Shown here: piece after piece, positions 4,731-4,886 of the stretch
Numbering within the stretch: position 1 is the stretch's first letter
Layout: every line of letters starts with the position of its first letter
Virus record (IMG/VR): IMGVR_UViG_3300031867_000013
Location: 53,887 to 117,886 of that record
Length of the DNA stretch: 64,000 nt
Strand: one strand, 5' to 3'
Source of the DNA: a virus
Taxonomy: Duplodnaviria; Caudoviricetes
Notes under the pieces: generated by a model
What the model was told of the DNA's origin: nothing
The model's database searches: none
What the model saw: the letters and a program-made list of their open reading frames with translations, nothing else
Translations under genes and position numbers: made by a program

Positions 4731-4886
4731 TGAGAACGATTCTCACTTGAACCCCGCGGAGGTAGTTGAGAATGATGATCAGTTGAGAACGATTCTTAAT
4801 TGATAATGGATTCTCATTTGAGAATGGTTTTCATTTGGGAATGATTCGTAATTGATAATACGTTCTCAAATGAGAATGGATTCTCA
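4731..4886. promoter_or_regulatory. tandem array of 8 Fur-box-like palindromes
   Basis: TGA(G/T)AA(T/C)-N1-2-ATTCTCA-type units at 4731, 4767, 4784, 4801, 4819, 4836, 4853 and 4871; 17-18 bp period from 4767 on; compare Fur 7-1-7 TGATAATnATTATCA. Confidence 0.7.

Follow-up and report, generated by a model that had tools for sequence, protein, structure and literature searches.

Tandem Fur-box-like palindromes beside an ARG-box-like pair in a Bacillota-type gut phage: a possible landing pad for host repressors

A textbook operator of iron genes is the Fur box, which in B. subtilis reads TGATAATnATTATCA. The Fur consensus of Xanthomonas is AATGAgAATcATTctCATT. In E. faecalis, the Fur boxes are TGAGAACGATTCTCA at fhuD and feoAB, TGATAACGATTCTCA at fhuCBG and TGAGAATGATTCTCA at yclQPN, and the operons bearing these boxes are up 5-18 fold in a fur deletion mutant (PMC6056675). 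The Fur consensus of C. difficile, TGATAATVAWHWTCA, is of the TGATAAT type (PMC6311696). The array described here has the same 15-bp dyad as the boxes of E. faecalis, B. subtilis and C. difficile. However, Bacillota Fur boxes occur one to three together, whereas the array has eight in tandem. It also differs from them in lying on a phage, in overlapping no promoter, in having no iron gene near it and in containing three units with a 2-bp centre.

Regulators of the host are known to act on phage DNA, as Fur does at stx1 and DtxR at tox. In both of these cases there are one or two sites and a named gene that is controlled, whereas the array has no evident controlled gene. At other loci, such as datA and the iterons of plasmids, many sites soak up a protein. 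These loci share site multiplicity with the array, although titration is hypothetical here. Tandem repeats with dyad symmetry also lie beside an A+T-rich region in the origin of phage lambda. Lastly, the injection-stop region of phage T5, whose mechanism has been open since the 1960s, holds the same boxes as the array.

The array and its surroundings

The window analysed here, 64,000 nucleotides long, is the final 64 kb of a single viral contig (117,886 bp; G+C ~29%), and the full stretch is present in one run only, a bovine gut metagenome; the small shares of 0.07-0.14 in other cattle-gut runs are not counted as evidence. Bases 1-149 of the contig are repeated at 117738-117886, with an exact match in the first 126 only, and the assembly thus closes on itself. 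No ORF clearly spans the 149-bp overlap, which could stem from assembly or be a short terminal repeat. Among the encoded proteins are a family-A DNA polymerase that is ~37% identical to Clostridium and Streptococcus phage polymerases, a DnaB-like helicase, the large subunit of ribonucleotide reductase and RNA ligases. Its large terminase has ~50% identity to the PBSX-family terminases of temperate Clostridium, Streptococcus and Bacillus phages, which is unexpected in a virulent-looking phage of 118 kb. We read the source as a virulent-looking phage with a Bacillota host. One RNA-ligase-like ORF (682 aa, window 44228-46276, - strand) matches the LAGLIDADG homing endonuclease family at residues 185-350 and RNA ligase at residues 417-674; the LAGLIDADG match may represent an intein or an inserted endonuclease.

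The array occupies part of a 1.1-kb gap inside a block of genes on the + strand. The features of this gap and its edges, in window coordinates, are as follows.

4247-4272, + strand: intrinsic terminator, a 10-bp stem and then a T run, closing the upstream operon (last ORF ends at 4213)
4628-4657, + strand: promoter-like site with an extended -10, TGcTATAAT, scoring 10/12 with TG in a consensus scan (a sequence match only)
4731-4745, no strand: unit 1, TGAGAACGATTCTCA, the same letters as the Fur box of E. faecalis feoAB and fhuD
4746-4766, no strand: insert of 21 bp, rich in G+C, CTTGAACCCCGCGGAGGTAGT, separating unit 1 from unit 2
4767-4886, no strand: units 2-8 in an unbroken row, one every 17-18 bp and each 2 bp from the next
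4888-4894, no strand: an extra, seventeenth half-site, TTAGAAC, 1 bp past unit 8, read from the sequence
4896-4930, no strand: ARG-box-like pair, TGCATAAAAATTTA and TGAATAAAAATTCA, with a 21-bp offset, nine bases past the array
5237-5265, + strand: promoter-like site TTGCAA-17-TATACT with TG, predicted to serve the downstream small-gene operon
5316-6716, + strand: downstream operon; its six genes are small and have ribosome-binding sites, and a terminator at 6715-6732 closes it

A reading of the window from its sequence alone had described eight palindromes at 4731-4886, three of them 7-2-7, with a period of 17-18 bp. The coordinates and letters of all eight units were borne out (starts at 4731, 4767, 4784, 4801, 4819, 4836, 4853 and 4871), and the division is five 7-1-7 to three 7-2-7. 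The period holds for units 2-8. Unit 1 starts 36 bp ahead of unit 2, that is, two periods upstream, across the G+C-rich insert, which contains CCGCGG. The spacer within units is 1 or 2 bp, and that between units is 2 bp in six of six cases. Tandem Repeats Finder independently calls the array, with a period of 17 and 7.4 copies. The same reading had pointed to isolated Fur-like sites at 8857-8871 and 10720-10734. These are present as written, but are no more than chance would place in A+T-rich DNA. In the window as a whole, 16 matches to the Fur-like pattern were found against 8.5 +/- 3.1 expected, and five of the 16 are inside the array.

Chance, or a repeat produced by neutral slippage and lacking function, can hardly account for the array. 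It is true that the genome is A+T-rich and has many short repeats. However, sites with at most three mismatches number 25 outside the array in the whole genome, so that 0.033 would be expected per 156 bp where eight are observed, and the Poisson probability of this excess is ~1e-16. In 3000 shuffles of the 1.1-kb gap there were never more than three sites, and no second cluster of such sites was found elsewhere in the 117.9-kb genome. Furthermore, units that have diverged from one another keep the half-site letters (T in 16 of 16; A in 16 of 16 at position 6), which is not the expected product of recent slippage.

The ARG-box-like pair beside the array has cores of the form TGAAT-w4-ATTCA at 4896 (two mismatches) and at 4917 (perfect, TGAATAAAAATTCA) and thus has the form of an ARG-box pair. 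No other perfect TGAATwwwwATTCA core and no other pair with 21-bp phasing occur in the genome, although a pair somewhere in it arises in 10.5% of shuffles. Tentatively, and together with the view of the array developed below, we regard the pair beside the array as a candidate tandem ArgR operator whose candidate binder is the ArgR of the host.

Upstream of the array, a very A+T-rich stretch runs from 4273 to 4700, next to it. The promoter-like site at 4628-4657 is directed into the array, with a predicted start near 4665. The array begins ~65-75 bp downstream of this site and extends to ~220 bp, and the next promoter-like site is 350 bp downstream. No strong promoter overlaps the boxes, and they do not lie at the promoter of an iron-homeostasis gene as Fur operators do. 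The + strand block also carries a 173-aa HTH_36/DnaD-like protein, an exonuclease and PhoH. A search of Rfam with 3500-13500 gave no match, and RNA folds of 4890-5240 had z-scores of 0.06 and -1.49, with no sign of structured RNA.

Other repeats are found nearby. A T-rich 16-bp repeat, ATTTTTTCGTTTTCATGC, is present in ~2.5 copies at window 4960-5002, after the ARG pair and ahead of the promoter-like site at 5237-5265. In gene-free DNA at window 6740-7520 and 8800-9200, a TTGTCAGAATATT / AATATTCTGA motif is repeated many times. Its copies look like the -35 regions of promoters with an attached palindrome. A lone DUF932 gene (336 aa, phrog_1221; window 7785-8795, - strand) with its own terminator sits in the middle of this non-coding region.

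Resemblance of the units to Fur boxes

The half-sites agree closely enough with known operators to back the likeness to Fur boxes that the sequence-only reading had drawn. The letters of the 16 half-sites are T16 G14 A14 G12 A15 A16 Y16 (T12/C4), which gives the consensus TGAGAAY, and unit 1 is letter for letter the E. faecalis feoAB/fhuD box. Written as 7-1-7, the consensus is the yclQ box, and unit 8 is the yclQ box with one extra central base. The five 7-1-7 units have 1-3 mismatches to TGAGAATnATTCTCA, and most of the units, though not all, are thus Fur boxes of the 15-bp 7-1-7 form. Over the 16 half-sites, mismatches total 13 to E. faecalis Fur, 22 to B. subtilis Fur, 36 to PerR and 49 to Zur; the Fur references are those of E. 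faecalis and B. subtilis, and the Fur of the phage's own host may differ in specificity. The reference half-sites for Fur, PerR and Zur reportedly go back to Fuangthong and Helmann in 2003. Positions 2-3 of the half-sites are GA, as for Fur, where PerR has TA and Zur has CG.

The motif is also found in front of bacterial iron genes. Intergenic tandem copies precede a Peripla_BP_2/FecCD transporter in Sporosarcina, an FTR1 iron permease in Alicyclobacillaceae and fur in Thermophilibacter. When bacterial genomes were scanned with a loose pattern, many of the matches were chance occurrences inside genes, and they indicated no host.

The array had been said to have no iron gene nearby, and this is the case: none of the flanking ORFs belongs to an iron-related family. 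In the genome of the phage we found no member of the Fur, ArgR or HTH_3 (Xre-type) families and no NrdB. Since the phage has neither Fur nor ArgR, any protein of these kinds that binds the sites must be the host's. By sequence, then, the units are Fur boxes, and host Fur is the candidate for binding them. They would quite likely be bound in any cell that has a Fur of the usual specificity.

We also considered a SinR-type reading of the junctions between units, ATTCTCA-nn-TGAGAAT. This was set aside: the junctions are off by four of 14 letters from the SinR inverted repeat, and no Xre-type gene is found in the phage.

Iterons for a phage protein are a further, rather improbable, explanation. 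The array could, for example, be an origin bound by the HTH_36/DnaD-like protein, and its likeness to Fur boxes could be incidental or a case of mimicry. As in lambda, tandem repeats with dyad symmetry lie beside an A+T-rich region, the spacing between units is strictly constant, and the 173-aa protein, with its replication-initiator and DnaD-like matches, is encoded 6.5 kb upstream. However, this gene is the only initiator-like one, there is no second cluster near it, and DnaA boxes are not enriched in the vicinity of the array. The units equal proven Fur boxes and such boxes recur in phages that do not have a protein of this kind, so that exact mimicry would be needed. In addition, in a cell containing Fur, Fur would bind these sites regardless.

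Fur-type clusters in other phages

No published description of such Fur-box arrays in phages was found, but similar clusters recur in unrelated phages. A pattern of three alternating half-sites gave 53 stretches in IMG/VR; since the pattern fixed a 2-bp junction, the constancy of the junction among these matches is not independent evidence. About 11 genomes of T5 size have the motif, and several have it twice per genome, both copies with identical flanks. The T5-like phage chee24 (MF431730.1; L054 in our set) has a perfect box, TGAGAATGATTCTCA, at 9154 and about six more Fur-type boxes at 9500-9680. The latter lie just past paired DnaA boxes and beyond the last early ORF of the + strand, at the non-coding end of the left terminal repeat. 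This region has been described as Repeat Region 3 around the calculated shear point, and Fur is unmentioned in that paper (Davison, bioRxiv 10.1101/866236).

The array and the T5-like injection-stop region are alike in several respects. Both are Fur-type clusters in non-coding DNA that follows small early genes on the + strand, and both occur in virulent or virulent-looking phages of ~120 kb with no iron gene near the cluster. They differ in spacing and setting. In T5, irregular intervals separate the boxes, which fall within the DRE/DRC repeats, adjoin paired DnaA boxes and belong to a 10-kb terminal repeat, whereas the boxes of our phage are regularly spaced, have no DnaA boxes near them (paired boxes as in T5 were looked for around the array) and are in a genome whose terminase type argues against fixed ends.

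The two kinds of operator are also combined in Brevibacillus phage Sundance (KT151959.1; L159), which was found when the array was compared by BLAST with named phages. The 323-bp terminal repeat of Sundance has an ARG pair at 103-137 (cores at 103 and 124, a 21-bp offset) and Fur boxes numbering four or five: those at 161-221 and a perfect TGATAATGATTATCA at 295. Sundance and our phage are thus both Bacillota phages of more than 100 kb with a tandem ARG pair adjoining Fur boxes. In contrast to the array, the boxes in Sundance are of the B. subtilis TGATAAT type, are spaced by ~23 bp and stand at the physical end of the genome. Boxes also occur close to ends in phi29-like contigs of ~16.5 kb (with protein-primed polymerase, lower collar and major head genes), where tandem boxes are 80-270 bp from the contig end. 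In such contigs (IMG/VR 3300045988; L002, L003, L007, L014, L016, L021, L028 and others), two boxes are flanked by GAAC/GTTC palindromes.

These positions could suggest that the array is itself an element for packaging or for a genome end, either a site bound by terminase or a stretch of a terminal repeat comparable to the T5 injection-stop region. The clusters of T5-like phages, Sundance and phi29-like phages are in terminal repeats or 80-320 bp from an end, and the gene layout around the array resembles that of T5, with a block of small genes on the + strand, non-coding DNA and then genes on the - strand, and with a tail-fibre gene to the left. We nevertheless consider this explanation very unlikely. 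The PBSX-family large terminase is encoded at 40.9-42.2 kb of the genome (L162 883-2229, - strand) and the array is at 58.6 kb, 16 kb away, so the array is not beside a small-terminase gene as a pac site would be. The phages that carry the related terminases have an adjacent small subunit, and a terminase of this type points to headful packaging without fixed ends. Thus the terminase site at a genome end that had been offered earlier as an alternative is disfavoured. Other evidence against such an element is that the contig closes on itself through its 149-bp overlap and that the array has no paired DnaA boxes. The 265-aa exonuclease likewise has no likeness to T5 A1 by BLASTP.

BLAST of 4000-9000 against phages gave no match, and neither the 205-aa protein of a neighbouring gene, nor the DUF932 protein, nor the DNA polymerase led to relatives in IMG/VR and JGI. 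Proteins 55-95% identical to the 205-aa protein (P0002-P0019) are present in cattle-gut assemblies. One metagenome contig of 1 kb ends short of the array. A distant relative, a contig of 161 kb found in IMG/VR and JGI through a 193-aa protein, has no such array.

A proposed nutrient-dependent landing pad

The array is real and highly non-random, and it reads as a set of Fur operators of host type, with the Bacillota form TGAGAAY-n-ATTCTCA, that a Bacillota-type gut phage carries next to an ArgR operator. The phage probably recruits nutrient-sensing repressors of its host onto its own DNA. We propose, with a probability of about 40%, that the array is a cis-acting landing pad for host Fur, and for ArgR with it, which ties early transcription to the nutrient state of the cell. 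Binding by Fur, action in cis and the direction of the effect are what we infer. In an iron-replete cell, Fur dimers would fill the boxes one after another, each rotated by ~230 degrees from the previous one because of the 17-18 bp period. Together with ArgR, they would coat ~200 bp of DNA. Lying between two early transcription units on the + strand, the coated DNA could then hinder RNA polymerase as a barrier or insulator that depends on nutrients, and downstream expression would thereby be coupled to the iron and arginine state of the host.

Some features of the locus fit a Fur landing pad less well. In three of the eight units the centre is 2 bp, not the single base of the canonical 7-1-7 box. 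The spacing at the junctions is steadier than that within units, which would suit a protein that reads ATTCTCA-nn-TGAGAAT, although the difference (three of eight versus none of six) is not significant. Unlike in classical Fur repression, there is no strong promoter over the boxes, and eight sites exceed the needs of simple regulation. The Fur of the host may also have another specificity, the consensus in C. difficile being TGATAAT-like. The lack of an array in the distant 161-kb relative also counts against this proposal.

The high number of sites could instead indicate a sponge for Fur, and possibly for ArgR. Phage DNA replicated to hundreds of copies would titrate host Fur and derepress iron uptake, and the ARG boxes would do likewise for arginine synthesis, both to the benefit of phage production. 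The array would then be a natural counterpart of the Fur titration assay. Decoys typically have many sites, and there is no phage gene that the array obviously controls. Fur is present in thousands of molecules per cell, and eight sites on each of 100-500 genomes would therefore be of the right order. We think titration unlikely, though a more serious contender than iterons. T5-like phages destroy the DNA of their host within minutes, yet they carry the same kind of cluster, and derepression of host genes would be impossible there. Titration would also come late, at high copy number, and in this case in a phage without an iron-dependent NrdB. Finally, arrays elsewhere are at set places, in terminal repeats and at genome ends, which a pure decoy would not need. 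We favour a cis-acting landing pad over a sponge because the boxes keep set positions in phages such as T5, which break down the chromosome of the host early and in which titration could change nothing.

An eight-unit array with no iron gene and with an ArgR operator beside it suggests that phages exploit the nutrient sensors of their hosts. More broadly, and with considerable doubt, we speculate that unrelated virulent phages across host phyla carry, at set places in non-coding DNA, dedicated landing pads for nutrient-loaded host repressors. By the same doubtful claim, the members would be the present phage, T5-like and phi29-like phages, ICP1 and Sundance for Fur, with ArgR alongside in the present phage and in Sundance. 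If so, these pads would differ from ordinary operators: acting in cis, they would form a metabolic checkpoint or a barrier to a DNA transaction such as transcription, injection or the processing of ends, and the window would hold the first regular array of eight units of the Bacillota type. Since the same boxes are found both in the T5 region and in the terminal repeat of Sundance, any mechanism they share would extend across phyla.

In ICP1, the boxes are within the first non-coding kilobase. Further Fur-type arrays are found in viral contigs L004 and L009. Two other viral contigs have tandem Fur-type boxes: five or more in L018 (1512-1640), and five in L032 (2558-2640), where the period is the same 17 bp and the boxes are flanked by a repeated CTTATAAC.
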